64,000 nucleotides of DNA from positions 1,216,001 through 1,280,000 of the forward strand of contig CP000066.1 of NCBI GenBank assembly GCA_000002445.1, given 5' to 3'. Positions 3,286-21,300 of this stretch are shown here, piece by piece. Both the position numbers and the translations under genes were made by a program. The notes under the pieces are model-generated. The model was not told the origin of the DNA. It ran no database searches and worked only from the letters and a program-made list of their open reading frames with translations. The stretch is from Trypanosoma brucei. Its lineage: Eukaryota. The number at the start of each line of letters is the position of its first letter. Position 1 is the first letter of the stretch.

Positions 3286-3485
3286 GGTAGCACTCTTTTA
3301 TTAAGGATAATCGATTTCTTGTGTTGAAAGTTGTGTGATTTCTTGAAAACAGTTGTGTGAAGATTTGAATAAGTTTTATCAAAATTTTAGCGGTCTTTCG
3401 ATTAAGATATTGTTATAATTTTTAATTTTCGTTGTTTACGCATATTTATATTTTTTCTTTATTAATATATATATATATTATTGGT

Positions 3486-4655
3486 TTATAGGGATTTGTT
3501 TGTGTAGACAGCCCATTTTCCTCCGTCCTTTGAATAATGGTCCATTGGGTAATGTACGTCGTTCCAGTTTACGTTTCCCAAGGCTACTTCTGCCTCATAA
3601 GGTGACAATAGAGGCTTATCGAACGCGTATCCCCAGTCGATGGAAAGTCTTGGACATGCTACCTGAATATAGCAGTCAACATCCTGAATTCTTGCCAGTT
3701 TCTGAGGGAAGATTTCGGACATGAGAAAGAGGGTGACTGTTTTTCCTCGCTTCTCCGCAAGTTGCATTATGCGGTCTACCAACCGTGGGTTTCCCTGACG
3801 TCCTAACGTTCCCATAATAAGTGCAAAACTACTAGCGGCTTTTCCCAATTGGACCGCCTCGCGCCGCAGAGTTCTCATTTCGCTCGTGTTGTAGCTTTCT
3901 GTTGTCATTGTCTTCTTGTAAGGATCATATTGTAAAGCGTTTAATGTTGGGTGAGCAATTAGAAAAGCTTCAAGATGGAAACGTCCATCACCTACGTACA
4001 GCACAAGATCCACAGCCGTTGGGTCCAGTACTGGGCTCGTGCAACCCAACAACTCCCCCCTTGAGAGCGGCTTATTTTGTGGCACAACAACAGGCTGATG
4101 AAAGTGGTTCTCTAACATCTGAACCCCAGCGCGCATGGAAGAAACGAACTGAATCGTTGCAATGCAGGCCAGGCGAGTCTCTGGGGGGACAAGGGAGCGA
4201 ACGGTATCAACGAAATGTTGTACATCAATGTCAATTTCGACAAACACGTACATCATATTTTTTATCAGACAATCTTTTATCGATATAAGGCAACTGTGAC
4301 CATAGTGAATCAAGAAGTCACAACCCAACGCTAGGGCCGAATAATCGTCTACGCAGCAGGCGCCGTATGTAACATCACCCAGAATTACCATCTCAGCTCC
4401 CGTCTGTTCCTCGAGAATATCAGCAATTGGCGCAGCGAACATCAGAAGGCCCTCGGGAAACTGGAGGGCTACGCGCGTAGCGCCCTTTTCCCTTATGCGT
4501 CGGGCACACTTCTCAATCTCAAACCTGTAGTTACTTGGAAGACCCAACTCCGCCTCCATGGTGTCTATGGCCCTTAGTAAAGCGTTGAAGAGAAACGTGT
4601 GGAGAAGATTGGTGAAAGACGACACAGCGGTATCTTCATTGCAACATCGGCTCAC
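3486..4655 (-). CDS. Diphthamide biosynthesis protein, Dph1/Dph2 family (2-(3-amino-3-carboxypropyl)histidine synthase)
   Basis: The motifs ALQFPEGLL, GDVTYGACCVDD and CDFLIHYGHSCL are the conserved blocks (including the cysteine ligands) of the Dph1/Dph2 family. The ORF is 389 aa. Confidence 0.7.
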   Translation of the reverse strand: MSRCCNEDTAVSSFTNLLHTFLFNALLRAIDTMEAELGLPSNYRFEIEKCARRIREKGATRVALQFPEGLLMFAAPIADILEEQTGAEMVILGDVTYGACCVDDYSALALGCDFLIHYGHSCLISIKDCLIKNMMYVFVEIDIDVQHFVDTVRSLVPPETRLACIATIQFVSSMRAGVQMLENHFHQPVVVPQNKPLSRGELLGCTSPVLDPTAVDLVLYVGDGRFHLEAFLIAHPTLNALQYDPYKKTMTTESYNTSEMRTLRREAVQLGKAASSFALIMGTLGRQGNPRLVDRIMQLAEKRGKTVTLFLMSEIFPQKLARIQDVDCYIQVACPRLSIDWGYAFDKPLLSPYEAEVALGNVNWNDVHYPMDHYSKDGGKWAVYTNKSL

Positions 4656-4868: not shown

Positions 4869-7262
4869 TCACGAAGAATCCTTCGGGCGTTTGCGCGCTC
4901 CAGTTTTCGGCATGAGTTCGTAGATAACGGGATCCGGTTCTAGTGTACACAGACAGTGCGCTATGTATTCCATCCTATATACCTTCAATCGTGAATTGAT
5001 AGCCGCAAGCTGCCCCTGCTCCCAGTTGTTGTCGTCGGAGAGGACGAAGTTTATGCTGTCGACAGGCCCAGACCCCTGAAGCAGAGCATCCACCAACTCC
5101 TGGGGTGTATACGGAATTACAGCCTTGCAGCCCCCACTTTGCAGAACGCGGGCGAAGCTCTTCGTCCTTAAATCAGTCGAACAACACAAAGCAACAGTCC
5201 AGGAAGCAAACGGCCGCTCGGTTCGGCGCCGTTGAAGCTGACACGCTTTCACAAGTTCAGAGACGGAGTTACGAAGCGACGCTCTTCGAGCCATTTCCGG
5301 GCACCATTCGTGTGGCTCCTCGGGGGGAATGCGATTTTCTTGTCTTGCTTCCTTAATAAACGAGGGTGCGAGCACCCACTTCCCTGCCGCAACGGCACTG
5401 AGAAAATATTCAGTTCTAGAAGGTCTTTCGGTAATGTAGTGTGTGCACTCTTCTACACTTATAGCTATCGTAAGTCCTAACGGCAGCAACTGAGAAAGTT
5501 CCTCTTCCAGATGTAAAAGTGATCTCGACAGCATAATACAACAAGGGGAAGGTGAAAACTCCCCCCGCCCCCCGCGTGGTGTATCGTCAATTTGAACCCT
5601 TTCACCTTCCTTTTCTGGATGAGGCGACACCCCTCTGTGTTCTATCTCTTTCCGCTCGCTTTGCGGTTGCTCCATATCAGCTTGCTTGTAGACTATCATC
5701 TGTGACGCTGGTGGAGTTTCCCGCCCGAACCTTCTACCGCACGCTGAAGAAGCAAGGGCATTAAAGGACACCTCTACATTGCAGGCGCATACGTCCCCCT
5801 CGCCCCGATCCTCTGCAGACCTACTTTGTGCCTGTCCCACACCCACAGCAGGTGACGTAGGCGTGACACTGGTTGCATCGGTCTTTGTTTCCAGTTCCCC
5901 AATCAGGTGCTCGAGCGAGCTTGAGAGCACAGAATCCCTCGGTGTTACGTCCTTGGAGAGACGTTGCAAACCATGGCCGTATGCACTGCTCCCACTCCTT
6001 CGCCCGTCGGCCAACACACCAGCAGATGCGACTGTCGCATTCCCCAACTCCTTGTTAAACTCGGAGAACTGTGGTGTATTCATGATGAAAGGGGAGCAGT
6101 CCTCCCAATATCCCGCCACAAGTGAGTGGTGTAGCCAGTCCACATGCACAAAAAAACACTCAATCACCCGTAGCTTATACCTTCGCCAGGCCAATGAAGC
6201 AACCTTAGTTGACCCTGCCAGGCCGTCAGCACTACCCACAACCAGGTGAGTAGTGTTGCTGCGCGCAAATGAGCCAACACTGTTCGCGCCCAGCACAAAG
6301 TCGTCCTGTATAACACACTGCATCCCGGCGCGCTTTAGGGAGTTCCGGAACGCCTCCCGGTCCTCTTGAGGCACAGCGGTGAATGTAATAACTGGTTTCA
6401 GAACACTAGAAACAACATACGGCTTCGCACACACACGCCCGTGACCTTGCGCTGCACACTCCTCGAGCCAGGAAAGTGAGACAAACTCTAGGCCGGGCCG
6501 AGGTGCAAAGAATTCAGTTGTTGGGCCCAGCAACACTACGTGGGTGGTAACTATTGTCAACGTCTGAGCCTGACGTATACCCGAGCGTTTGATTAGTTCC
6601 TTCACATCATCTGATACTAGATTAGGTGGAAAACAGTAGGCAACTGCGCCCGACCTCTCCCGCAGAGCGGTTATGCGCGTCGATATATCCCGCAGACCCG
6701 ATACTCCTACTAGTCCACCGTACTGTTGCGAAAACTGACAGTACGGTTTAACGCAGCATTGGTACTTCCGGGCAAACTGAACCTTAGCGTTTCGTGATAA
6801 ATCCGATATTCTGCTTGGAACAACTAATACTGAACATCTCCGGGTCATTTCGGGAGAGTACCTAGCTTGATGAGTCTCGCAAATTCTTTGCACCATCTGT
6901 CGTTCCGCAACATCCAATGAAGTTGTACACACCTCCAGCCCTCGAAGTGAGTAGTCAATCCCAAACTCACTTACTCGATCCATCGAGCAGTTGCCTGACA
7001 GCACCCACTCTGGTGTAACACATGGAATCCCGTGTACCTTAGCCAAAGCATATTTTTTCCCTTCGGTACTCCTGGCAACCAACACATTGGTCCTGTCCGT
7101 CAGTGTTTCTGTGTATGTCATACCTTGCTGCTCCAGCTTAGATTTAATGAGTTCCAGGTCATTTCCAGATATCGCTGTTGTTGTAACAAGCATGTATTTC
7201 GGTATATGGCACCCACGAGAGACGAAGACCACCCTCTCGTGGCTTATGGAAGAAACGTACAT
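4869..7262 (-). CDS. BRCT-repeat protein (multi-BRCT, TopBP1/Dpb11-like architecture), 797 aa
   Basis: The N-terminal segment LIKSKLEQQGMTYTETLTDRTNVLVAR...AKVHGIPCVTPEWVL is a canonical BRCT fold signature. Further BRCT-like blocks follow (VVPSRISDL...KPY; LAPSFIKEA...). A long acidic/serine-rich linker is present. Confidence 0.55.
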   Translation of the reverse strand: MYVSSISHERVVFVSRGCHIPKYMLVTTTAISGNDLELIKSKLEQQGMTYTETLTDRTNVLVARSTEGKKYALAKVHGIPCVTPEWVLSGNCSMDRVSEFGIDYSLRGLEVCTTSLDVAERQMVQRICETHQARYSPEMTRRCSVLVVPSRISDLSRNAKVQFARKYQCCVKPYCQFSQQYGGLVGVSGLRDISTRITALRERSGAVAYCFPPNLVSDDVKELIKRSGIRQAQTLTIVTTHVVLLGPTTEFFAPRPGLEFVSLSWLEECAAQGHGRVCAKPYVVSSVLKPVITFTAVPQEDREAFRNSLKRAGMQCVIQDDFVLGANSVGSFARSNTTHLVVGSADGLAGSTKVASLAWRRYKLRVIECFFVHVDWLHHSLVAGYWEDCSPFIMNTPQFSEFNKELGNATVASAGVLADGRRSGSSAYGHGLQRLSKDVTPRDSVLSSSLEHLIGELETKTDATSVTPTSPAVGVGQAQSRSAEDRGEGDVCACNVEVSFNALASSACGRRFGRETPPASQMIVYKQADMEQPQSERKEIEHRGVSPHPEKEGERVQIDDTPRGGRGEFSPSPCCIMLSRSLLHLEEELSQLLPLGLTIAISVEECTHYITERPSRTEYFLSAVAAGKWVLAPSFIKEARQENRIPPEEPHEWCPEMARRASLRNSVSELVKACQLQRRRTERPFASWTVALCCSTDLRTKSFARVLQSGGCKAVIPYTPQELVDALLQGSGPVDSINFVLSDDNNWEQGQLAAINSRLKVYRMEYIAHCLCTLEPDPVIYELMPKTGARKRPKDSS

Positions 7263-7452
7263 ATGTGTTCAAACATAAGAAGGAAAGGAAAAAGGAGATG
7301 CCCATGCATGACATGTGCGGCAAACCAGTATATTCGGATAACAATAAAACGGCTGGTACATGTGGGAAGAAAAATAACATGAGAGGAAAGGAATAATAAT
7401 AATAAAAAGAAAAAATTACGCGCAGCTACGAAAAGGACAAGACGGATGGCTC

Positions 7453-7845
7453 TTAGTAGAAGAAACCGAGCACTTTACCACCAGTATTGCGAGCACGGGC
7501 CTCTTCGTGGTCCATGATGCCAAGTGACGTCGTGAGCACGACGAAGCCAAACTGCCGACTAGGGAGAATATTCTTCACCCACTTTTCGAAGTCACGAGCA
7601 GTGCAGTCGAACCGAGGGCAGATGGCCCCGCATTTATTGAGGCGCCCATTGAGATTTACGACGATCTTCCCTGCACGGTGGTCGTCAACAATCTCAAACT
7701 CACCAATGTAGCCGTGTTTCTGCATTACCTGCAGAAACTTCACTACTACTTTCGATGAAGGCCGGATGAGAACCTGGCGCTTGCCGCGGCGCTCTGCGCC
7801 CGCAATGCAGCGGAGCGCATTAGCCAAAACGCTCATCATTGTCAT
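7453..7845 (-). CDS. RPS15A: 40S ribosomal protein S15a (uS8)
   Basis: 130 aa. It contains [53 protein letters not shown]...[35 protein letters not shown], which is near-identical to eukaryotic RPS15A/RPS22. Confidence 0.92.
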
Positions 7846-8041
7846 TTTGCTTAACCACTACTAGAAATGACAAAGAAAAAGAAAGCAAGAATGAAGTGTG
7901 CAGTAAGTGTTACAAAGCAGACGAACGAACATACACCAACAAGCAAGTGTCATACATGGAAGTGTGTCGATACAGCTTTTTCCGAACCCCCATGGTGCAC
8001 AAGTTAACGAAGGGAAAAAACAACGCAACACACAACAGGCC

Positions 8042-9736
8042 CTACGCACTCCCAAGAAAAATTAATGCGTCATGGTCGTAGCTAGAGTTTACCATCGAGT
8101 TCGGCTCTACCCTGCCTCCAGAGTCAACAAAAACGGCGCCAGTATCACCAGAAAAAAAGTTTGCATTACAGGAGGATTCGACCGAAGCTAGCCTACTTGA
8201 TGGGAGGCAATAGTCTCCCAGGAAGAAATCAAATAGACGATGCCAAATTGGACGCGAGTGCCGGTAAGAGGTGCGTCGTTTACCCGAGCATAGTGAGTCT
8301 TTGTTAGTAATGCGGGTCGCACCTTCCTGGAACAATTCCGCGTATAGCCGACCCCGCAAGACAGTCTCCACCACTAGTTGCTCGATGTGGAACTGCAGTT
8401 TTTTACACGTACGAGCAGCAGCAGGTACGAACATGTGTGACCGAAGCAAATTCGTGAACTGCTTTACGACGCTGGAGCGGGACACGTCCCCTATTTTATG
8501 ATATGCGTGGGGTTTATCTGTGTCTGAACCCCGCCCACAAGCACCATAGTTGTGGATGGAAACGATACGCCCCGAATCATCTACATTTACGCAAACCACG
8601 TCCGAATGTGGAACACCAGCGTTCGTCTGACGTGTCATTTCGATAAGCGTCCCGAGACGGACAGGCGTATTAAAGCTGAGTATTCTACTTTCGCATGGTA
8701 GTCTGTACTTCTCCGAGAAAACTGAAACGGACCTGAGTGATCTCGGCAGTATTTGCGATAAGGAAATCGCCAAGCCGGCACAGTGGATATTGTCCGCACC
8801 ATACACAACAATTTGTTTGCCCCGCAGGAGAGCGGATAAAAGCAACTCCGTTTCGTCAAGACCGGTATCACTCCACTCTAGAAACACCAGCAACCAAACC
8901 GAAAGAGGCTTTAGCAAATGAAAGGGGCCTAAAGACACAACCCTACTGTCGCCCAATGATACGCATCTGCCGATTTCAGGTGGCCAACCGACATCAACAT
9001 CAATAGTTTCCACCAACGGAAGCTTCATCTCGAGATATTGTTTCACTGTGTTCAAAACCGCAGTTTCGCAGGTCGGTTCTTCAGGTATCAATGGCGTCCT
9101 TCCAAACAATGCCAAAAGAACACATTCGAAAAAGTTGTGGGTGCGCCTAAACGCATCAGCTTCTGCTTCGTCGTCTTCCGCCAACAACGACATCAGTGGG
9201 CGCATTGGACGTTTGCGTGCCTCCTCACGCCGTCTCTCGAGGTCGGGAAACGTAGAGTATTCGGACGCCAACCGCCTTTCTGTCACATCAACCCAGCCCT
9301 CTAGCAAAATCCTCATAAAGCAAGAAAGAACAGGCCATCGGCGTATGAGCTCATCACTTCGAGGATGTGTAATTATCACACAAAAACGGCGACTTTCGCC
9401 CCGGGCAAGTATGTCTCCCAGACAAAAAGCTATACCGGACACACCACCTGCATCAGGGTCCGACATCACGACAGATTCTTCATTTGACTCATTCGAATCG
9501 AGAACACGGGCAACAAGTTCTCTCATTTTCTGCTTAGAATGAGGGCGCAGCGATCCGCTAATTGAATGAGCACTGAAAAGCGCTTTTCCATGAAACGCAG
9601 AAAGTTGTGGCATCTGTGCACCAAACGAATTCATTTCTTGATATTCATAATACTCTGTAACATGAAGATCCTTTGGACCCTCAATGGCATCAAATTCCCC
9701 CAATATTACCGCGGGAACATTCCATACCGTCTGCAT
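8042..9736 (-). CDS. Conserved hypothetical protein; possible longin (uDENN)-DENN-type protein of the folliculin/NPRL2/SMCR8 class
   Basis: 564-aa ORF. The N-terminal AVILGEFDAIEGPKDLHVT resembles the longin-domain start of FLCN/NPRL2 (hydrophobic-x-x-F-x-E-x-x-GP). The C-terminal ELLLSALLRGKQIVVYGADNIHCAGLAISLSQILPRSL resembles a DENN core. This is by eye only. Confidence 0.3.
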   Translation of the reverse strand: MQTVWNVPAVILGEFDAIEGPKDLHVTEYYEYQEMNSFGAQMPQLSAFHGKALFSAHSISGSLRPHSKQKMRELVARVLDSNESNEESVVMSDPDAGGVSGIAFCLGDILARGESRRFCVIITHPRSDELIRRWPVLSCFMRILLEGWVDVTERRLASEYSTFPDLERRREEARKRPMRPLMSLLAEDDEAEADAFRRTHNFFECVLLALFGRTPLIPEEPTCETAVLNTVKQYLEMKLPLVETIDVDVGWPPEIGRCVSLGDSRVVSLGPFHLLKPLSVWLLVFLEWSDTGLDETELLLSALLRGKQIVVYGADNIHCAGLAISLSQILPRSLRSVSVFSEKYRLPCESRILSFNTPVRLGTLIEMTRQTNAGVPHSDVVCVNVDDSGRIVSIHNYGACGRGSDTDKPHAYHKIGDVSRSSVVKQFTNLLRSHMFVPAAARTCKKLQFHIEQLVVETVLRGRLYAELFQEGATRITNKDSLCSGKRRTSYRHSRPIWHRLFDFFLGDYCLPSSRLASVESSCNANFFSGDTGAVFVDSGGRVEPNSMVNSSYDHDALIFLGSA

Positions 9737-10004: not shown

Positions 10005-11540
10005 TCACATGGAAAAAGCGGATGACCATGTAAGACCAAATTTCACATGATCAAACAGGCGATTATTCCCATTCCTCCATGTAATGTTGCCACGCCCATC
10101 CACACCAACAGGTACACAAAAATTAAGTTCAAACCGACCGTTCGGCGTGACACCGAAAAGAGGAACCCTTGTCACGACAATACCAAAGCCTACAGACGCA
10201 GCACATGTACGAAACCAGCGGTATGTGTCAAAGAGTTCTGAAGACGAATTTACCATTCGAAGATTCCCGACATTACCGAATAAATGCATGGCTGCAAGAC
10301 CATTATTCGGAAAAAAGAGAAATGGAAAATTTACGCTGAGTGACGTCGCCCATAGCGCATTTCCTCCTGTTGCCGCAAAGTGACCACCCTCTCTCACGCC
10401 ACCGTCAACTGTCGACGGACCAACACTCCTGAACCCTCGAACGTGACATGACGACAGGAAAAGTCTGTCACTCAACGGTATCCTAGCCCGTTTGTATGAC
10501 CAAATCCCCGCAACTTTACTGTTCCATTGAACACTGCAAAAAGGGCCCAAGGGCCAGTACTTGGCAGTTTGAATTTCGGTCTTCAAGAAATTGAACCCAC
10601 CTCCGAGAGGACCACCCGCCAGCTCATTTTTCATGCTCAACTGGACGCCCTTTATGGGTAGCGGGTAGATGCCACACAGATAGGGGTCTGCATGATGCCA
10701 CACGTTAGAAACTCCCAACTCATGCCTGAAATAACCTTTGAAGGTCGTTCTAAAGTCCTGTAACATTTCATCAGGCAGATTCGTTCCTTCCCTCGATACG
10801 AGGAGCCTACGCTGAAATCCGATAGTGAATTCGGATAAAAGACCTCGCTTTTCATTTCTCGTGGTGGCTTTAACTTCGTCGATCCTTTCGTTGCTGGCAA
10901 GATGGTACATTTTATTTTCACTTCGTCGCCCCAAATAATACTCACCCGTTTGACCCAAATACGTAGCATTCGAAAGCATTGAAAGCGAAACCGCATGCGC
11001 TCGGGATGTAGGGGGAACGTAGCTTCCAGATAGCGAGTACCTACCACCTAAAATATTTTCCAGCGAAAGTGTTAACTCTGGAAGAACTGTTTCTGTTGTG
11101 AAGACTCCAAATGTCTTCTTAGGTTTAGCCTCCACAACGTCGATATGAACACAAACATCGTTAGATTCCCCATGAAATGTAGGCTCTAAATTGAAATCTA
11201 CCTTACTGAAAATACCCATGCGTGCCCATCGTGTTCTAGCTTCGTTCATATTGTTCGTAATGTCTTCAATGTTTTCAGACCGTTTAATTGCCTCGACATC
11301 ACGACTGATAACACGGGGATGAATGTTTTCAATGCCTCTGATGCGGACGTGTGTACGTATAGGAACGTTAAGCACCTTACCGATATCCTCTTCGCCTATA
11401 TAGACCTCTTGAGGAGGTACACTACTCTCGCTAGAAAAGGTCATACGATCCTCACAACTAGTGTCCCTAGGATAAGTAAACTTGTGTGTCCCTTGTAGGG
11501 GTTGAGAAAAAACTTTAGTGCACAGAAAATGGCAAAACAA
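10005..11540 (-). CDS. SAM50: SAM50/Tob55 (Omp85/bacterial surface antigen D15 family) mitochondrial outer-membrane beta-barrel assembly protein
   Basis: The N-terminal POTRA-like region (VLNVPIRTHVRIRGIENI) is followed by a long alternating-hydrophobic beta-barrel region. The motif DRLFLSSCHVRGFRSVGP matches the Omp85 RGF/loop-6 motif, and the protein ends in an aromatic-rich terminus. The true start is probably an internal Met (MTFSSESS...). Confidence 0.7.
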   Translation of the reverse strand: MFCHFLCTKVFSQPLQGTHKFTYPRDTSCEDRMTFSSESSVPPQEVYIGEEDIGKVLNVPIRTHVRIRGIENIHPRVISRDVEAIKRSENIEDITNNMNEARTRWARMGIFSKVDFNLEPTFHGESNDVCVHIDVVEAKPKKTFGVFTTETVLPELTLSLENILGGRYSLSGSYVPPTSRAHAVSLSMLSNATYLGQTGEYYLGRRSENKMYHLASNERIDEVKATTRNEKRGLLSEFTIGFQRRLLVSREGTNLPDEMLQDFRTTFKGYFRHELGVSNVWHHADPYLCGIYPLPIKGVQLSMKNELAGGPLGGGFNFLKTEIQTAKYWPLGPFCSVQWNSKVAGIWSYKRARIPLSDRLFLSSCHVRGFRSVGPSTVDGGVREGGHFAATGGNALWATSLSVNFPFLFFPNNGLAAMHLFGNVGNLRMVNSSSELFDTYRWFRTCAASVGFGIVVTRVPLFGVTPNGRFELNFCVPVGVDGRGNITWRNGNNRLFDHVKFGLTWSSAFSM

Positions 11541-11813: not shown

Positions 11814-13331
11814 CTAATATGCTCTGCCTCGGTCAAGATTTGGAGGCGACCACTCATTAACGATAAGTTCGGGGAAAACATTAGGTTTCAAAGTTGAAGT
11901 ACCAAGAAGCATATTGACACACTCTTGGAACCCTTGGGTTATTGCAGGGTAAGCTGTATGGAGCTGACTCAGGTTATAAATCGATTCGCGATTATGAATT
12001 GCCAATGAAGCCAACTCAATAATGCTGCTTGCATGCGGTCCAACAGCTCGCACACCAAGAACCTGCATTTTGTGATCATTTGTAACGATAAGCTTCACAA
12101 AACCGCTCGTATTGCCCATTGCGAGGGCCCGACCCACAAATTCATAACCGTACCTGGCCACCTTGTATGCTATGTGTTCCTTCCTGCATTGTTGCTCATT
12201 GCGACCTACAGCGGCCACCTCCTGATCAAGAAACATAATCGTCGACAGATTGTCCAGGCGTTGAATAAGTTCTCCCTCCGGATATGGACGATACATATGC
12301 TCAATACAGGAACGCGCTTCCAACTCCCCAACGTTAACAAGCGCCACCCTTGAGCCGACATCACCACACGCATAAATATGCTTGTGTGGAACAACGCAAT
12401 AAAACTGGTCACGCTGGATTCGACCCTGCTTCAACTCAACACCGATTTTGTCGAGTCCAATGCTACCCACATTTGGATCCCTTCCTATTGAAACCAACGC
12501 CTTGTCGACCACGTGGTCTGTTAGCCTGTTGTCTCTCAAATCACGCAGCGTGTAACGGAATTGGCCGCCCTCCACCTTGTTGCTTTGCAAAGCAGAATGG
12601 TGGTGAAAATTGACCATCTTTGCCTCCAGGAGCTTCTGAACGAAGAGAGCAACATCATCATCTTCCATTGGCAATATTCGATTAGACTTTTCAATAACAT
12701 TTACTTCGGTAAGTCCAAAGTTCGCAAATATCGATGCAAACTCACATCCTATAACGCCAGCGCCGATAATGACAATGCTTTTCGGAAATGGTTGAGTCAT
12801 TATATCATCGGAAGTGAAGACAACCTCACCGTCGGCAATTACGGAAGCATGTTTACGAGGTTGAGCGCCGCACGCAATGACAAAGTAGTCGGCCCGTACC
12901 TCCTCAATGCCTCCACCCAACAGTTTAACATCGACACTGTGAGGTGACGTAAATGACCCATGACCACATATAACGTCAACGCTAACCTTCTCAAGCTGAT
13001 GAAGAATCTGGCCGTGACGGAACTCTGCTGCGCAATCTATTGATTTCTTAATATTCGAAAAATCAATACATGGGAGAGCTTGACGGCACTTCATAAAACG
13101 ATTGGCGGTTTGGCCGTTCATAAGGCGGACGAATTTTGCCATTTCCCATAACGTCTTCGACTGTAGCGCACCGTTCCAAAGGTCAGCACCTCCAATCCGT
13201 GATGACTCGATTATGCAAGCCCTTTTTCTATAATCCACAGCCCGCAACGCGGCGGCCACTCCTGCAGGTCCTCCCCCTATGACACAAACATCCACATTTT
13301 TCGCCCAGCTGAGCCGGGTTTTAGCAAACAT
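11814..13331 (-). CDS. Dihydrolipoamide dehydrogenase-like FAD/NAD(P)-binding oxidoreductase lacking the redox-active CxxxxC disulfide
   Basis: It has an FAD-binding GxGxxG (DVCVIGGGPAGVAAAL), a second dinucleotide fold (IVIIGAGVIGCEFAS) and a C-terminal dimerisation domain. A LipDH-like H...P...E block (LHTAYPAITQGFQE) is present. Where LipDH has GGTCLNVGCIPSK, this protein has GGADLWNGALQSK, so both active-site cysteines are missing. Confidence 0.75.
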   Translation of the reverse strand: MFAKTRLSWAKNVDVCVIGGGPAGVAAALRAVDYRKRACIIESSRIGGADLWNGALQSKTLWEMAKFVRLMNGQTANRFMKCRQALPCIDFSNIKKSIDCAAEFRHGQILHQLEKVSVDVICGHGSFTSPHSVDVKLLGGGIEEVRADYFVIACGAQPRKHASVIADGEVVFTSDDIMTQPFPKSIVIIGAGVIGCEFASIFANFGLTEVNVIEKSNRILPMEDDDVALFVQKLLEAKMVNFHHHSALQSNKVEGGQFRYTLRDLRDNRLTDHVVDKALVSIGRDPNVGSIGLDKIGVELKQGRIQRDQFYCVVPHKHIYACGDVGSRVALVNVGELEARSCIEHMYRPYPEGELIQRLDNLSTIMFLDQEVAAVGRNEQQCRKEHIAYKVARYGYEFVGRALAMGNTSGFVKLIVTNDHKMQVLGVRAVGPHASSIIELASLAIHNRESIYNLSQLHTAYPAITQGFQECVNMLLGTSTLKPNVFPELIVNEWSPPNLDRGRAY

Positions 13332-14712
13332 TAAAATTATTCGGTAAACCTGATACGATAGCAGGGAAATAATTAGCGGAAGTAAGAGTTTTTCTCAGGC
13401 AGAAGCGACAGAAAGTTAAAATACGCAGCTGAGGGTTATCGTAGAGAGTCAGATGAGCACATATATTTATCTTATGGGAAGTCAAATGGCACACACTGAA
13501 GGAAAGCAGCAACACAAACACCCTATTATACCACTTCCTTCCTCTCAGCGGTGCTTCTAAAACCATTCCCCTTCACTCCCTCCTCCTAGAGCGGACGCGA
13601 CCAGGTGCAAGAGAACGAGAAGGAAAGGCGCAGCGGGCAGATCTGGCCATCCGGACGAGAACACACTAAGCATCCTGACTGAAAACGGCGGTGCTAAGCG
13701 ACAGTGAAGGTGAAAAAAAGAACCACAACAGCAGTGTTACAGCAGACAGCGACACGCATGCAAATTTCGCTTTGCAAGTCAAAGGTAATGGGGAGCGAGG
13801 GGAGTTGGCAAGCGTCCACCGGTAGTGTGGAGCGCGAGGCCCGCGCAGTTCGCCCCACCCTCCATTAACCAGGCCAAACGAGCCAAACAAATCGAAAGGG
13901 GGAAAAGCACGACCACTCCTGAGAGCGACAATATTGCACCCAACCCTTCACACACATCCGTACGGAACCGGAGGCTGCATGAAATTCCGCCTACGGTCAG
14001 CCCAGCATCGGGAATATGGCTCAGCACCGCGCACCCAGCGGTCCCGCCCAGCCCCGCAATAATTCTAAGCAGCGGTCACCGCCCCGACGCCCCCATCACA
14101 TACTTCACCGTCCGAAAGCAAGGAAGCGGCCAGACGTACGTTCAGGCGGACGGGCGGCAACATAGCGCACAAAACCCGGGAGGGTAGTTCAACCGAAGGA
14201 AGCAGCTTCCTCCTCCCCCACCGGAGTCGACGTCAGCATCAAACGAGGAGGAAAACAAAGGAAGACCGGCACCATGCGGCCCCTCGAAAAGAGATATGTG
14301 CGGCGGGTGGTCAAAGCACCCGCGCAAGGAACATAATACTGCAAAGGGCTTTTAGCCCTTTAACGGGCGAGCACAGCCGGTCGGGTATATGACGACGGGC
14401 AAGGGGGCGGCGGATCTGTCCCTAAGAAACGCCGAAGCCATCTTTCACACTCCAGTGCCGCAACAACGCGGTTCCCCCGGGAGTGGGTGGGGCCCGTTTC
14501 TCAGCATGATTTTCCCTCGCCCGAACCCCACTTCGGCTCACTGACGAAAGCCTTTCCGCGCACAGACACCAACAAGAAGCACGACGCGGCAGAAAATCGT
14601 CACAGACGACCACGTAACGGTCTAGCGAACCACTTACACAGTTCCCTTCTTCGAGGGGTAATCCCTTCAGAGAGCCCCTCCTCAGCGGATATCACATAAC
14701 CAAGAGCCAGTT

Positions 14713-14858
14713 CAGTGTCTCACGCCCTTGTTTCCTGGGGGGAAAAAAGCATTGGGAGGGGGCGCGCTACTCGACTTCCCCGGCGCTGGTGGTGGTGACA
14801 AAGCGGTGCCCCCTCCCAATGCTTTTTTCCCCCCAGGAAACAAGGGCGTGAGACACTG
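14713..14858. repeat. Perfect 51-bp inverted repeat (arms 14713-14763 and 14808-14858) with 44-bp spacer
   Basis: The reverse complement of 14713-14763 (cagtgtctcacgcccttgtttcctggggggaaaaaagcattgggagggggc) is identical to 14808-14858. It lies in the ORF-free tract. Confidence 0.9.
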
Positions 14859-17296
14859 AGGTGAAGGAGAACCTTCTGGATGCCCCTCCGAAGTGACCTG
14901 CTAACGACCCCACCGAATAACCGCCTACAGACCCCACTAATAAGCAACTGCCGCACCTTTTCGTTTGGTAACTGTTGATGCGGAGAGTGCGTTTCAACCC
15001 CAACTCCATTTGGCCTGAGGAAGCGGAAAGCATCATTTTGAAGAGGAGAGAAATGTTGACAAGCGCTGTCGTTCTAAGAGGGCAGGCCTAAATACAGTCA
15101 CTATCGAAGGGAGGGGTCACCTGCATAGAGGGCAAAAAACAAATTTGTTCAAGGAAAACCAACCAATCCGAACGATTTTTGATTCTCAAGGGTAAAAAAT
15201 CATCGATACAGCATCACGGATGATATCTAAATTCTTCCTTCGCGCCGTAAAGGGAACCCATTTGGCATCTCTACTGACATTTTCACTGTGTATTCAAGTC
15301 ATCCGTTATTTGTTTATTTATTTTAGAAACGATACACACTTACAAGCGGAGCGCGGCGTCACGTTTTCACCTTAACTCAGCAAGTGCAGGCCCTCTACAA
15401 CCGGAGGTTTGGAAGGGGGCGTTTCGTTTCGTTTGTGCACACCATCCTGCAGGAAAGCATGCCCCTCCACCCTTTCGTACAAAGGTCCGCGCACCACATA
15501 CAGCAAAACCAAGGGTCGAGCCCCCTCCTCTCCCCAACACACACGTAACATTTCAACATGTCGCTGGAAAATGATGCCCAAGGGCAATATATTGGAGGAG
15601 ATCCATTCCTACCAGTTGGATCACCCGAACCCTAACAAAAGCCGGCCACCTTTCTGGGGAATCAGCCCTTGAGTCACCCTCGGCGGCGGATGCAGGTTCC
15701 CTCGAACGTCAGGGAGGAAATCTGCAAAAAAAAAATGTAGTTTTACTCCACAGATCTCTGAAGGTTGATCAAACACACCGCTGTTGAGTTTTCTTTCTGT
15801 TATACAAATGCCCATCGTTGGTGCCATAACTTTCGCCTCCCCAAAATGGAGTGCGCTCTGATGCCACAGGCGTTCTGAGTTCCGCATCCCTAGCAACGGC
15901 TCCCAACCTATTTTCCGCGTGAGGATGGGCACAATTTCAAGGTCACGCAGAGCATACGCCCATAGTGCCTCTTTATTCTGTTTTCAAGAACACTGCGTTC
16001 GCTGGGGGCTATTACCCACATTAGCTCACCCAGTGGTCTTTGTTCTTCGTCCTTCACTTGAAAAATATCACTCTGGGAGCGCCTTTCCATTTGAGGCGTG
16101 TAGTTGTGTTAATGACCGGTTTATCCGGGACTGTGAAAGAACAGGCTTTGCGATCATGATGAGGGAGGCTAAGATTGGTGTTGATGGGCGGAAAATTCCC
16201 TCGCGATGCCGGCCACCTCATCATGGGTCTAGGGTCCAGTACACCATCTCATCGGGTTAAGCCAAGAGCCAGCAGCGTTCTTCTCCAGGGTAACACTGCT
16301 CTGCCCGGCTGCGGCATCATACAGCACAGGGATCAGCAGCGTCTTGCTGGGACACCGCTTTTCATTTGTCGGTCCCTGGGTGTGTGCCAGTGTGCCATCA
16401 GCGGCAGAACGGATGGTGTTTTCCTTGAAAAAGCTGTGCGTCTATTTTTCCGCAACCGTTTCAGCACTGCGATGGAAAGAATATTGAAAAAAAGTGTTTA
16501 ACAACAAGCTTAAGAGGAAAACTCAGTGATGAACAGTGTTGGCGATGGTGGAATTGTCTGTGCTCGTTGATTGTTGTGTGCATTGTGCGAGTGATAAAAG
16601 CGTGTTTTATCTACATGTTTCTTCCGTGCGTTCGTTTCCTTCAATATTATGCACTCTAGCCTTTAGGCGAAAGCCTAAGCATCCGCGCAGTTTCCGCACA
16701 TACCGCAATTTACACTCGTTATTTTTGGTTGTGTACTCGTTGCCGACGGCTGGAAACTCTGAGTGTGAAGAAATCGGGAATCTCTGTGGGGCCCGTGCTC
16801 TTGGACGTAATCTCACCGTTTGTGAAAAGAGCGCCTTCATTGCGGAGATCGGGTGGCCTAGTGGAATGAAAATGGTCAACACGTACCACTTCCCCCACAC
16901 AGGGACAAAAACGTGGTAGTTCCAGAGAGCGATCTGGGCAACAAATATAACCTTGCACAAGGAAGCTCTTTTTCACGGCATGCGCAACTTTTTTCTTTGT
17001 TTGAAGGATGCGGGTGCAAAGTTCGAACAGGTACGTCAAAGGCTTATGCGGGATGTCACTCTGTCCTTCGAAGGACCTTTCTCGTTCCGATACCAGTGCG
17101 CCAAAAACGAAACTTACGCGGAAACGCCTCCACGCGCAAACCTCTTCTCGCGGCGCCAGCTGTTGGGGAGACGGCAACGTCAACTAAGTAAAGGCCTCAA
17201 ACCCGACGGCAGCGGAACGAAAACAGGAACCGACGCCACGCATTCGGACGCCAGCCCCGGCGCTGCTGACCCGTCTCTTTTGAAGCAACACAAATC

Positions 17297-17425
17297 AAAA
17301 ATTTAAATAACAAGAACTTTGTCACGAGGTTAATTTTTCTCTCCGGAGCGGTTGTTGATTTAGAGCAGTTGCCTGAAGTCATGGTTAAGGGGTTCGGTTC
17401 CCCGGTCATCTGTCGTTTTTTCCAT
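17297..17425. ncRNA. Candidate small-RNA/tRNA-like element ~100 bp upstream of tRNA-Ser(AGA); strand and identity unresolved
   Basis: On the plus strand, 17389-17421 reads GGGG-TTCGGTT-CCCC-GGTCATCTGTCG-TTTTTT, i.e. a T-arm-like hairpin, an acceptor-like 3' strand and a T6 terminator. I could not fold an anticodon arm, so it is not a canonical tRNA. Read on the minus strand, the same interval starts ~100 bp divergent from the tRNA 5' end, the spacing kinetoplastids use for tRNA-dependent pol III small-RNA genes. It ends at an Sm-site-like AAAUUUUUG (plus-strand A-run 17297-17301). Confidence 0.25.
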
Positions 17426-17523
17426 AAAGCGCTTTTCTCAGAGCCTTCGGCCGGCGTCGTGTAGCATACATAAATATAAGTACGTCAAATTTTAGTAAAT
17501 TTAGTAAAGAGGTCGGCGCACGT

Positions 17524-17604
17524 GTCACCATACCCAAGTGGTTACGGGGACTGACTAGAAATCAGTTGCGATCTCGCGCGCAGGTTCGAATCCTGCTGGT
17601 GACG
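17524..17604 (+). tRNA. tRNA-Ser (anticodon AGA), type II with long variable arm
   Basis: The cloverleaf was folded by hand. The acceptor is GTCACCA/TGGTGAC plus discriminator G. The anticodon stem is ACTGA/TCAGT with loop CTAGAAA. The variable arm is long. The T-arm is GCAGG-TTCGAAT-CCTGC. A T6 run follows at 17605-17610. Confidence 0.88.
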
Positions 17605-17610
17605 TTTTTT
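17605..17610 (+). terminator. Pol III T-run terminator (TTTTTT) after tRNA-Ser(AGA)
   Basis: A T6 run lies immediately 3' of the tRNA. Confidence 0.7.
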
Positions 17611-17809
17611 CGTCAATTCCCCGTGTTCCGCTGCTTTTGTCCAGTCAACTTTTTTCCGTAACAACAGCGATTGGGAATTGGGAAACGGTACGCGCACCAC
17701 AGGCCAGTTGTGACCACCAAGCAACACAGAGACGCCGCGGAGGACGGACAGCGTTGGGCAACACCGCTCCGAAGGGTGAAAACAATCAGCCGATTTGGGT
17801 GCGAAAAAG

Positions 17810-17891
17810 TGACAAGAGTGGGGTTTGAACCCACGCCTACGAATAGAAGAGAACTTGAGTCTCCCGCCTTAGACCACTCGGCCATCTTGCC
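17810..17891 (-). tRNA. tRNA-Leu (anticodon CAA), type II
   Basis: The minus-strand sequence is GGCAAGATGGCCGAGTGGTCTAAGGCGGGAGACTCAAGTTCTCTTCTATTCGTAGGCGTGGGTTCAAACCCCACTCTTGTCA. The anticodon loop is CTCAAGT, the variable arm is long, and the T-loop is TTCAAAC. It is followed on the minus strand by C+T5 (plus-strand A-run 17804-17808). Confidence 0.88.
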
Positions 17892-17950
17892 ATCGACGGC
17901 CACAACAGATTTGTTTTAGACACTTTTTTTATTTATGCAATGCCAAAAAC

Positions 17951-18031
17951 CGTCACCAGCAGGATTCGAACCTGCGCGCGAGATCGCAACTGATTTCGAG
18001 TCAGTCCCCGTAACCACTTGGGTATGGTGAC
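17951..18031 (-). tRNA. tRNA-Ser (anticodon CGA), type II; identical to the Ser(AGA) gene except position 34
   Basis: The minus-strand sequence equals the 17524-17604 tRNA with a single change in the anticodon loop (CTCGAAA vs CTAGAAA). A T5 run follows on the minus strand (plus-strand A-run 17945-17949). Confidence 0.88.
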
Positions 18032-18112
18032 ACCGCCTCGCCACCACCTCTCAAATGCGTTACCCTTGCACAAGCGATCGATGCCGTGATTTTTTTGTGC
18101 GTTTCTGTGCGA

Positions 18113-18360
18113 TGCGGAGTGTGAAGCGGTTGGTGGTGGTTTGCCGTCCTCCAACGGACGGCCGCCAGTCACTTGTCGTATGAGCCGATAAAGCTGCGCC
18201 GGAGTTTTCCTGGAAGTCCTCTCTGAACAATATAACTGTGGGATGTGGACGCAGAAATTTGTAGGGCTTAAAGTCACGGCGTCAAGTTGCAGTGCCAGTC
18301 GTTGATGGGCGGGCCACCATCGGATAAGAAGGGTGGGGGACACTACGCGCCACAGAACAG
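18113..18360 (+). ncRNA. Candidate structured GC-rich RNA element divergently positioned ~95-100 bp from tRNA-Ser(CGA) 5' end
   Basis: The hairpin GCCGUCC-UCCAAC-GGACGGC lies at 18142-18161. A long-range complement pairs GGUUGGUGGUGG (18129-18140) with CCACCAUCGG (18314-18323). A TTTT run is at 18204-18207. I looked for the SRP-RNA helix-8 AGCAG/GNRA signature and did not find it, so the identity is unknown. Confidence 0.2.
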
Positions 18361-21300
18361 CACTATGAGACTATAAAAATGAGGTAAAGCCGCACATGAG
18401 CTTGTTGTAGTCACTCAGTTATGTGGTGGAGCGTCTCACGAGTCGGCGCGGTGGCCATGGCAAATGGAAAGGACATTGGATCATCACAGTACCATTACAA
18501 GTGCACATCTTTCGGTGCTTTGTTTTGGAGTTAAAGAAGATGGAAGAGTCGGAAAATTTTCTTCAATTTAACACCACTAACTCAGTGCTCTTGAGCTTCA
18601 CTATCAACAGTTTCCGTTTGTGGCTCGTGTGTCCCAAGTGTCCACAAGGTTTGTACGCCTCGGGCCTCTCGGAACAGTAACGTGCCTGCGGATTGTGGAG
18701 AAAAAGTGGATAGTAAAATTAATGAATGTAGGGAGAACACGCCCTATGTACTGATTTTTTGTGAGCTTTTTTCTCGTGTTAGAGACTCACCCGCTCAAGT
18801 TACTGCATTCTTCAGGCTATGGGGAAGGCCATATTCAAGAAAATTGGCTGTGTGAACAGCAGCTGCCTCTGAATAGAGCAGGTGAATCACCGATTGGGCC
18901 TCCATGACTTTCCCACGGTGGGGAACATAAGAATTCCACATATTAATGTCCACGGAGCCGTGCAGATAGGCGTTTTTATGTTCCTAAAAACCTACTAGCG
19001 TCAACCGTGTTGGCACAACAGCGTTGAAGCCGTCTCTAGAGTCTCCGCTGTGGGGAGTAATCGGCGTTTACTTTCCTGTGAGATGCCCGTTCACCTCCAT
19101 TATTTCACGACATCAAAAAAAAAAACGTTCCAAACTTGGTTATGTGGATACTTAATGTTCAAGGGGTCAAGTACACGGGTCGAAAGTTTCATCGTTTCAA
19201 AAAATTTATTACCAGCAATGTTAGGTGTGTATTGAACTGTTTTTTCCGGGAAAAGTTGGTAAATGAATCTGTCATAGGGAAACTTGCCACCTTCACCAGC
19301 CCATTCTGAACAACAGCCCCCAGCATGTAGATTTTGAAATACGCATTGTTTTCCACGGGATTCGCACCGGTTTCTTCTGCGCGCCTTTGTGTTTTCGCTT
19401 ATCGCTCTGAAAGTCACATTTTTTTGTGGAAACATCTGCATGGTTCCCCTCGATTATTTCTTCGGTCCGGGCGCCGCATGTGCGTGAATTTCTGTCGATG
19501 TGTGTCCCAACAGTTGGATTGCCTCTTCAGTCTTTACTGAACCTTGTTGACTTCTACGTGCGCTGCGTGGGTTGCCTGCAGCGTGCTTAGGGTCATTTTA
19601 CCTTGGGATGCTCTCTGTTCCCGTGCCGAAGTGACGGCTGTAGTTGAACCGTTGTAATGAGCTTAAATGATCCTTTGCTGCGTGTCCAAAATGCTCAAGT
19701 ACTATGGACGCCCCACCCCCTGGGATGAAGTTGCCACACCAAGAGCACCGGCCACGATTACTCGTGCGGATGAAGCCGCGGACTTCCCACCGATTTGAAT
19801 GTCACCGTACTTATGGTCGTGTTGGGCGCCGTTGGCGTCTTACAAGCCACCAGCACTTTGACTCATGATGTTCCAGCGTCTTGTGTTTCATTTCCCGGAG
19901 TACTGGTTTTATCTGCTCTACTATACCAAATGTATGCGGTTGCTGCGATCCACGTGAGAAAATACGAACTGCGGTGCGCACTGCGTAAGTCTGTCTAGTC
20001 AAAGCTTTTATTTGGCCCTTTTCGCCGCATTTTCCGCTTGTAAAAAAAGTTGATCTCGGCACACTTTGTTTTACTTTCTCTAAATATTGCTCCAGTCAAT
20101 ATGTTTGGAGTCTTCTGCAGCCTCTTTCCCTATTTTTGGTGCCTTTGAATATTCTCGTCCAGCTAGTTTTTCTCTTTTTTTATTTTCTCTGGCTAGTCTC
20201 GCCTTTTCTCCTTCATAAATTAACTTATATAATTGGCGTTCTGCAGTTGCAAGTTTGTTGGTACTCTCGTTTATTCCGCTGCTTTTCTGGAGTATATCTT
20301 CCCTCCATCCTCATTTTTCCTACGTTCTCGTTTTTGCTGGACCACTGTAGTTGAACGCCGTTGTAATTTTCCTAACATCTGTTGAAACCCATTGAAACTT
20401 CATTGTGATCTCCACTCTCATATAGGTTGTGAAATTTGACAAGTCTTCTAAACATCGACTCACTGCCTTCGTTCGTGTCGGTTTCACGGGTATTGTGTCG
20501 CTTCAGTGGTGCAACCTGGCACTTGTGCGTGCGTGTCTGCTAAAAAATTTGTTTTCTCAACACAGAGAAGTGCTGGCATGGACTAGGTGCGTGGTGAAAC
20601 TACTAACCTACGTTGTTTTATTTTTTTTTGTTAAGTTATAAAAGGAAATCTGGAAAATTTGAAAGGTTATAAGATTCTGGCACAGTTGCCTCCTTTGTGT
20701 CTCCGATGTGCTGGTCAAGTCCTCCATGACTGTGCTCAACTGAATCAAGTATCATCTCTAAGTTTAGAAACGTCGCTACGATTCAAGAAAATGGCTTTCC
20801 CCCAGTTTGATTGCTTTTGCCGCTTCGGAAATGAAGTTGGTGGTGGCCGTCCATGGTCGAAACCTTTACTGGCGTATGCGTTTCTGCCCTTCCAAGCAGT
20901 CAAGTCGCTGAGCTACCACTCACCCCCTATTACGTTGCACACTCCATAGTAATGTCAGGGCCCATATTCCAGATGAGAGGGAAAACCGAGCGTGTTCATC
21001 AATTCTGTTCCTTAGTGATTGGGGCCGGCAGATGATTGTCGGCCTCCGGGGGGAGCAGGCATCAAAGTCATCGGTTCTCGGGGATGAAAAGGAACATCAC
21101 CTTACCCTTCTGCAATCGTGAGGGCACCTTTTCGGTGGTCTGTAGGCCAGCACAGTCATCAAGCACGCTCTACAAAAATAACCCGGACACAATCCCACAT
21201 GGATCGCAATGGGGAGCTAGGGAGCTCCCACAGCCGAAAAGATTCGCTTTGGCAAAGCAACTTCACAGTTACGACGTCAATTTCTGAATTTTGCGAGGAT

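Follow-up and report, generated by a model that had tools for sequence, protein, structure and literature searches.

The protein encoded at positions 11814-13331 on the minus strand of the 64,000-nucleotide stretch of Trypanosoma brucei DNA analyzed here (contig CP000066.1, positions 1,216,001 to 1,280,000; referred to as the window) is GCVL-1, a member of a monophyletic, strongly constrained, and cysteine-free sister family of the dihydrolipoamide dehydrogenases (E3) that occurs in kinetoplastids, in many bacteria, and in at least one other eukaryote. GCVL-1 has lost every one of the four residues on which dithiol-disulfide catalysis by E3 depends. It is neither the L-protein of glycine cleavage nor the E3 of the 2-oxoacid dehydrogenases, and its database name, dihydrolipoamide dehydrogenase, is almost certainly wrong. 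The reading that we favor, with a probability of roughly 0.55, is that GCVL-1 is a flavoenzyme dependent on reduced nicotinamide adenine dinucleotide (NADH), of the diaphorase or quinone-reductase type, in which a non-disulfide acceptor is reduced directly at the flavin.

The open reading frame (ORF) is the T. brucei gene Tb927.3.4390, annotated as "dihydrolipoamide dehydrogenase, putative (GCVL-1)". The coding sequence is complete, with 505 amino acids, an ATG start, and a stop codon at 11814-11816; the coordinates given in an earlier note on this DNA, made from the sequence alone, match the ORF listing, to which the minus strand is added here. The mass calculated for the window protein, 55,838.6 Da, agrees with the 55.839 kDa given for UniProt Q580K3, and 503 of its 505 residues are identical to those of a T. 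b. equiperdum protein with the entry name dihydrolipoamide dehydrogenase (P0001), the two differences in the latter being G107S and Y505H. A separate gene, Tb927.11.16730 (GCVL-2, 50.4 kDa), encodes the authentic T. brucei E3.

The best solved relatives of GCVL-1 are lipoamide dehydrogenases, with an expectation value (E) of about 1e-48, and phmmer alignments place the GGTCLNVGCIPSK segment of the solved E3s 6uzi, 1dxl, and 1jeh exactly onto GGADLWNGALQSK of GCVL-1 (residues 47-59; 13155-13193, minus strand). In this former redox-disulfide motif the interchange cysteine has become Asp50 (13182-13184) and the flavin-proximal cysteine Ala55 (13167-13169), with Lys59 kept. That both redox cysteines have been lost, as the earlier note had claimed, is borne out by the alignments with these three structures, with the E. 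coli proteins Lpd, SthA, and Gor, and with Mycobacterium tuberculosis LpdA. A second change, which that note had missed, affects the His-Glu dyad contributed by the partner subunit: AHPTLSE of E3 reads AYPAITQ in GCVL-1, within AYPAITQGFQEC (residues 460-471; 11919-11954, minus strand), where Tyr461 stands for the catalytic His and Gln466 for its partner Glu. The last residue of this segment, Cys471, is 97% conserved in the family. GCVL-1 is accordingly devoid of both the CxxxxC redox disulfide beside the flavin and the HPTxxE dyad that mark E3 membership. The accompanying claim, that classical dithiol-disulfide exchange is impossible, is upheld, and a diaphorase-type flavoenzyme is a likelier identity than an E3; both points are strengthened by the missing dyad, by a score below the cut-off of the E3 model TIGR01350, and by the existence of a separate, abundant E3.

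A displacement of the redox cysteines, rather than their loss, would have left an alternative CxxxxC in the N-terminal 70 residues, and none is found there. Only Cys16 and Cys39 occur in this segment, located in the FAD Rossmann strands beta1 and beta2 according to the secondary structure of the model, and E. coli Gor has a cysteine at the same beta2 position as Cys39. The C82-x5-C88 pair of the T. brucei protein was likewise rejected, as both residues are specific to T. brucei and missing even from T. vivax. Among 117 homologs, the only alignment columns with more than 50% Cys are 16, 39, 196, 382, and 471; C16, C39, and C196 occupy ordinary sites in Rossmann strands or next to GxGxxG (Cys196 lies within GVIGCE, as it does in SthA), and C471 is conserved but single. 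A CxxxxC anywhere in the sequence was found in only 8 of the 117 family members.

Homolog searching retrieved about 100 kinetoplastid-type sequences from Trypanosoma, Leishmania, Leptomonas, Phytomonas, Angomonas, Trypanoplasma, and Neobodo, as well as many metagenomic ones; GCVL-1 is 80% identical to its T. vivax and 75% identical to its T. cruzi counterpart. In the 92 kinetoplastid-type sequences compared, which span three paralog lineages, Asp50 is present in 92/92, Tyr461 in 91/92, and Gln466 in 79/92, and position 55 holds Ala, Thr, or Ser but in no case Cys. Because the substitutions recur across these 92 homologs, the cysteine loss, as judged from the alignment, is not a sequencing or chance artifact. 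The substituted active-site motifs rank among the best-conserved segments of GCVL-1, and with these motifs near-invariant and the cofactor residues invariant, the conservation pattern indicates that purifying selection acts on the protein, whose active site is altered, and that it is no decaying copy.

Bacterial homologs, 41-46% identical to GCVL-1, carry GGAGxxNGALSSK, in which both redox positions are without Cys, together with HPHPxxTE, which keeps both His and Glu. In 25 sequences of this type, Gly50 and Ala55 are each found in 25/25, His461 in 22/25, and Glu466 in 25/25. Position 50 (Asp or Gly) therefore covaries with positions 461/466 (Tyr/Gln or His/Glu), which suggests that the acid-base function may have been relocated rather than randomly lost. 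Three intermediate sequences (P0076, P0108, and P0109) combine Gly50 with Tyr461 and Glu466 and carry N-terminal extensions. The gene for P0109 (positions 123-1613 of its contig) adjoins a eukaryotic MCM2-type gene (1610-4192), and the family is therefore present in at least one eukaryote outside the kinetoplastids.

The relationship of these proteins to characterized enzymes was addressed with a neighbor-joining tree, a distance method, using four references (E. coli Lpd, SthA, and Gor, and M. tuberculosis LpdA). The cysteine-free sequences were monophyletic with respect to all four in 100% of 200 bootstraps, and the kinetoplastid (Asp50) group was monophyletic in 97%. Identity of GCVL-1 is 24-27% to each of Lpd, SthA, and LpdA and 22% to Gor. 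Profile searching ranked the nearest solved families as E3 (324 bits), soluble transhydrogenase (STH, 265), MerA (259), LpdA (236), and glutathione reductase (about 221). In the copy of the Protein Data Bank (PDB) searched, no clade member has a solved structure, the best match having an E of 7e-49 at about 27% identity. Against the NCBIfam models, GCVL-1 scored 294.7 bits for E3 (TIGR01350, cut-off 408.8), 238.3 bits for STH (NF003585, cut-off 465), which is its second-best match, and 226.4 bits for LpdA (NF005883, cut-off 479). Since GCVL-1, two paralog representatives, and two bacterial relatives all fell below every NCBIfam equivalog cut-off, the clade is without a curated model. GCVL-1 carries the full signature of the clade, which consists of GGA[DG]xxxGA[LT]xSK lacking the redox cysteines, Cys471 (in QEC), and a C-terminal GxSxxKP tail. 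A scan of GTDB with one genome per species yielded at least 402 cysteine-free loci, distributed over Myxococcota, Bdellovibrionota, Bacteroidota (Cytophagales and Flavobacteriales), Burkholderiales, SAR324, and others.

Within the kinetoplastids the three lineages are GCVL-1 itself, a Tb927.4.5040-like lineage (P0069, 49% identical to GCVL-1), and a Tb927.8.7380-like lineage (P0087 and P0095, about 42%). The paralogs share with GCVL-1 the GG[AC]DLW[ND]GALQSK and (A/S)YP...Q motifs, membership of the cysteine-free clade, and mitochondrial assignment in the ImportOmics data; they differ from it in their longer N- and C-terminal extensions and in being only 42-49% identical. The Tb927.8.7380-like lineage bears the label "acetoin dehydrogenase E3 component-like / point mutation", and the TriTrypDB wording "point mutation" shows that annotators had noticed the altered site in that paralog. 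One of the copies on chromosomes 4 and 8 has been regarded as undergoing pseudogenization (PMC2212663). Many members of the two other lineages (P0069, P0073, P0075, P0077, P0078, P0091, P0095, and P0102) have the sequence GGCDLW, in which a Cys directly precedes position 50, the site of the first redox Cys in E3; the corresponding residue of GCVL-1 is Ala49.

Apart from the catalytic residues, the protein retains the architecture of its superfamily. Pfam assigns Pyr_redox_2 to residues 14-335 (E 4e-45), Pyr_redox to residues 185-255, and Pyr_redox_dim (PF02852, E 1.6e-19) to the dimerization or interface domain at residues 364-470 (11922-12242, minus strand), which together make up the layout of a class-I pyridine-nucleotide disulfide oxidoreductase. 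An AlphaFold model of the P0001 sequence, built on a 75-sequence alignment, reached a mean predicted local distance difference test (pLDDT) score of 90.0 and a predicted template modeling score of 0.85, with the interface domain confidently folded. Foldseek searching with this model returned E3s as all of the top matches, with template modeling (TM) scores of 0.87-0.94 and root-mean-square deviations of about 2 Å. The two-dinucleotide-binding fold and the C-terminal dimerization domain of E3 are thus both present, and the earlier note was right to describe the flavin adenine dinucleotide (FAD) and NAD(P)H folds and the dimerization domain as intact. The FAD-binding GxGxxG motif is GGGPAG (residues 19-24; 13260-13277, minus strand) and is invariant in the family; the NAD(H)-binding GxGxxG motif, taken to the end of strand beta2, is GAGVIGCEFASIFANFGLTEVNVIE (residues 190-214; 12690-12764, minus strand); and the conserved GD motif of the FAD domain is YACGD (residues 320-324; 12360-12374, minus strand). 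The residues retained are G19/G21/G24, Glu42, Lys59, G190/G192/G195, Glu197, Glu214, Gly283-Arg284, and G323-D324, and all of these other than Glu214 are invariant in the 75-sequence alignment.

The end of NAD strand beta2 is occupied by Glu214 in GCVL-1 and by Asp in the paralogs and bacteria, compared with Arg in glutathione reductase and Asn in SthA. An acidic residue at this point in E3, as against the Arg residues of glutathione reductase, has a known role in NADH/NADPH specificity. The acidic Glu214/Asp therefore suggests that the family would prefer NADH over NADPH.

A further family-specific feature is the C-terminal tail LLGTSTLKPNVFPELIVNEWSPPNLDRGRAY (residues 475-505; 11817-11909, minus strand), which extends about 20 residues beyond the end of E. 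coli Lpd. Conservation of its residues Ser479, Lys482, and Pro483 is 90% or higher, also with the bacteria counted in, and residues 471-500 have pLDDT values of 86-94 in the model. Compared with E3s (EC 1.8.1.4) such as human DLD, T. cruzi LipDH 2qae, and Elizabethkingia 6uzi, GCVL-1 has its FAD, NAD, central, and interface domains in the same order and shows the TM scores given above, its best sequence and profile scores, and the same FAD/NADH motifs, Lys59, and GD motif; bacterial clade members even keep the HxHPxxxE of E3. It departs from them in Asp50, Ala55, Tyr461, and Gln466, in an identity of only about 24-27%, in one extra residue inserted within the NAD domain, and in this longer conserved tail.

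At the N-terminus, a short leader, MFAKTRLSWAKN (13296-13331, minus strand), precedes the Rossmann fold and is a probable mitochondrial presequence; its residues 1-7 have pLDDT below 50, and N-terminal alignment showed that paralogs and bodonid orthologs start with MLRR. Short leaders of this type are found on other trypanosome matrix proteins. In the ImportOmics study (PMC5436138), Tb927.3.4390 was detected in whole-cell extracts with 24 peptides and 60% coverage, and in gradient-purified mitochondria it fell upon RNA interference (RNAi) against ATOM40 to a ratio of 0.457 (log2 -1.13; 4/4 replicates, p = 0.013). It is TargetP-positive there (Supplementary Data 6) and is counted among 331 new mitochondrial candidates; SAM50 RNAi leaves it unchanged (ratio 1.02). 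The paralog Tb927.4.5040 also falls on ATOM40 RNAi (0.431), Tb927.8.7380 belongs to the mitochondrial reference set, and the mass spectrometric intensity of Tb927.11.16730 is far higher than that of Tb927.3.4390. These data show GCVL-1 to be an expressed mitochondrial protein imported via ATOM40. A glycosomal location was considered and rejected, as the PEX14-RNAi ratio of 0.72 is not significant (p = 0.52; PMC5436138) and the C-terminal -RAY is no canonical type 1 peroxisomal targeting signal.

For an enzyme with intact cofactor sites and without a redox disulfide, the favored reading envisages the following mechanism. GCVL-1 would be a homodimer in which NADH delivers its electrons to the re face of FAD in the manner of E3, and the reduced flavin would pass its electrons straight to a non-disulfide acceptor on the si face, because no disulfide is present there to take them. 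Four invariant residues of one subunit, Asp50, Trp52, Asn53, and Gln57, would line the pocket for this acceptor together with Tyr461', Gln466', and the conserved C-terminal tail contributed by the partner subunit. In kinetoplastids, Asp50 and Tyr461 may have taken over the acid-base role of the His-Glu pair that the bacterial members keep. Chemistry of this kind is known from engineered E3s, as active-site cysteine mutants, including Cys-to-Ser substitutions, lose lipoamide activity while keeping their NADH-diaphorase and transhydrogenase activities. A natural case is M. tuberculosis LpdA (Rv3303c), which is reported to be without one cysteine and the His-Glu pair and to act as an NAD(P)H:quinone reductase; its missing Cys and missing His were confirmed in our alignment, with the LpdA sequence verified against 1xdi. 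LpdA combines the class-I fold with a crippled redox center, GGAAVLDDCVPSK, and with VYPSLSG, in which Tyr replaces the catalytic His, and the same loss of the dyad with Tyr at the His position is seen in the AYPAITQ of GCVL-1. By analogy, LpdA would be the best functional model for direct flavin reduction of a non-disulfide acceptor. Unlike the GCVL-1 family, which has neither redox cysteine, LpdA keeps the flavin-proximal one; it is 26.5% identical to GCVL-1 and lies outside the cysteine-free clade.

Several points weigh against this assignment. The residues of the proposed pocket are placed by homology and not by measured distances. No conserved partner emerged from the bacterial gene neighborhoods, either in the seven contigs inspected or in the clustered neighbors of 79 GTDB loci. 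In the passages of PMC11949353 that refer to earlier work, a 2018 biochemical study (Chiranjivi & Dubey) is cited for Leishmania GCVL-1 sharing the substrate of GCVL-2 with lower activity, and the L. infantum GCVL-1 ortholog is described as non-mitochondrial. If accurate, the reported activity and location conflict with an absence of lipoamide activity and with the mitochondrial location in T. brucei. The activity report would fit the view, assumed in the annotation and in part of the Leishmania literature, that GCVL-1 is a true dihydrolipoamide dehydrogenase, or an L-protein isoform for glycine cleavage, with weak activity, and E3s are indeed the nearest solved relatives of GCVL-1 by sequence, profile, and fold. 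The established E3 mechanism, however, needs both thiols, and a protein with no redox disulfide, no His-Glu dyad, no displaced CxxxxC, and a score below the TIGR01350 cut-off is very unlikely to be such an isoform.

A second alternative places GCVL-1 among the soluble transhydrogenases of the STH/SthA type, exchanging hydride between NADH and NADP+ via FAD at a single nicotinamide site and so supplying mitochondrial NADPH. SthA/UdhA also dispenses with the disulfide, as seen in GGGCTHWGTIPSK and in NYPTMAE, which has the same His-to-Tyr change, and it shares the GVIGCE motif with GCVL-1; in the alignment, Arg218 of GCVL-1 falls on the Arg of the 'DRLL' segment in SthA, profile and fold searches both gave a strong match to the STH filament structure 9n4y, and the STH model is second best in NCBIfam. 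The score for that model, though, is far under its cut-off (238 versus 465), and the tree grouped the cysteine-free clade with SthA in only 0.5% of bootstraps, offering no support for a sister relationship. Whereas the first Cys (GGGC) is still present in SthA (24% identical) and NAD beta2 ends there in Asn, GCVL-1 has Asp50, Ala55, and Glu214; it thus shows neither the single Cys (GGGC...T) of STH members nor their nicotinamide site free of an acidic beta2 residue, which lets them use NADH as well as NADPH. Such an acidic Glu214/Asp would normally be expected to disfavor the 2'-phosphate of NADP(H). On balance we consider a transhydrogenase improbable.

The earlier note had left open a diaphorase-type flavoenzyme or a non-catalytic paralog; the former is favored here, and the latter has become the weaker of the two because the cofactor residues and substituted motifs are near-invariant across 75-117 homologs. 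As a pseudoenzyme, GCVL-1 would serve as a structural or regulatory subunit, for example by binding E2, an E3BP-like partner, or another mitochondrial complex. Such a role would accord with the loss of all four E3 catalytic residues and with the recruitment of former enzymes as structural subunits by trypanosome mitochondrial complexes. It is made unlikely by the FAD- and NAD-binding residues, invariant in kinetoplastids and bacteria alike, and by the high conservation of the substituted motifs; no solved structure in the PDB copy searched holds GCVL-1 or a close relative. The bacterial record argues for an autonomous enzyme. The largest cluster of neighbors covers 13 of the 79 GTDB loci, and the recurrent neighbors (a sensor kinase, a nitroreductase, hisIE/hisF, and riboflavin synthase, as recognized by reading the sequences without a Pfam scan) look like unrelated housekeeping genes. 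With no conserved neighbor, the family behaves as a free-standing gene in bacteria, here at no fewer than 402 loci. One candidate partner, pointing to a pterin-recycling reductase, was rejected: the gene for P0117 (positions 8001-9488 of its contig) overlaps by 10 nucleotides the end of a same-strand Biopterin_H gene (7240-8010), coding for an aromatic amino-acid hydroxylase of the phenylalanine hydroxylase kind, an arrangement that did not recur among the 79 other loci.

Extending the favored flavoenzyme reading, the cysteine-free E3-like proteins, including the three mitochondrial T. brucei paralogs, might constitute an unrecognized class of matrix NADH:acceptor oxidoreductases, for instance NADH:ubiquinone, contributing to the reoxidation of NADH that continues once complex I and NDH2 have been removed. 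The same class would occur with His-Glu in many aerobic bacteria, and the kinetoplastids would have swapped in Asp50/Tyr461/Gln466. PMC5225879 reports partial compensation for the loss of NDH2. This wider proposal is speculative, and we would bet against it. Whatever probability lies beyond the favored flavoenzyme and its three rivals (weak E3, transhydrogenase, and pseudoenzyme) falls to other chemistry.

The assignment bears on current resources, as Tb927.3.4390 and its Leishmania ortholog are listed as dihydrolipoamide dehydrogenases in databases, metabolic reconstructions, and drug-target lists. A 2010 drug-target ranking (PMC2927427) lists Tb927.3.4390, Tb927.4.5040, and Tb927.8.7380 under this name, and a 2025 knock-out study of L. 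major DLD (PMC11949353) proposed GCVL-1 as a possible compensation for DLD loss. The sequence evidence implies that GCVL-1 cannot back up DLD by the known mechanism, which renders the assumptions made in both papers doubtful. In the literature searched, the only main-text mention of Tb927.3.4390 was within a target list, and the supplement of Urbaniak 2012 has no entry for it. Identifying the acceptor would fill in a reaction now missing from the mitochondrial redox metabolism of trypanosomes and define a new functional branch of the flavoprotein disulfide reductase superfamily. Disulfide-reductase folds without disulfide chemistry are already known from STH and LpdA, so that the family represents a variant and no new principle.

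The bare observation of cysteine loss is probably not new to specialists, because the gene is annotated, the sister paralog is flagged "point mutation", and the Leishmania ortholog has reportedly been assayed; a published statement for GCVL-1 itself was not confirmed. What appears to be undescribed in the resources searched is that GCVL-1 and its paralogs fall in a large, constrained, cysteine-free clade to which bacterial proteins also belong, that this clade is without a curated model or solved structure, and that kinetoplastids have exchanged His-Glu for Tyr/Gln along with the change of Gly50 to Asp.

With regard to the surroundings of the gene, every window ORF of at least 200 amino acids for which a credible match exists is on the minus strand, and the window is therefore one head-to-tail gene array. 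Upstream of GCVL-1, the roughly 10 kb from 13332 to 23475 contain no ORF of at least 200 amino acids and no convincing shorter one. This gap harbors tRNA genes for Ser-AGA (17523-17605, plus strand), Leu-CAA (17809-17891, minus strand), and Ser-CGA (17950-18032, minus strand), and the GC skew reverses its sign at around 16 kb. Flanked on both sides by minus-strand gene arrays, the gap corresponds to the putative restart region of the earlier note and has the look of a boundary at which one transcription unit follows another head to tail. GCVL-1 is the first ORF after the gap in the direction of transcription, as the earlier note had remarked while calling the position incidental but notable, and no link from position to function was found.

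Directly downstream of GCVL-1, the ORF at 10005-11540 (minus strand) encodes an Omp85-superfamily protein (PF01103, E 1e-17), probably mitochondrial Sam50. Translation probably begins downstream of the listed TTG start; an in-frame Met (MTFSSESS...) follows. This neighbor fits a location on chromosome 3, where TbSam50 is Tb927.3.4380. Farther downstream lie genes for a folliculin-domain protein (PF11704; 8042-9736, minus strand) and for a twin-BRCT protein (PF00533/PF12738 with an RTT107-type BRCT; 4869-7262, minus strand). Elsewhere in the window, two 2-kb bins are markedly low in GC against a background of about 0.49, namely 40001-42000 (0.387) and 56001-58000 (0.400), the latter with a strong AT skew of +0.28.

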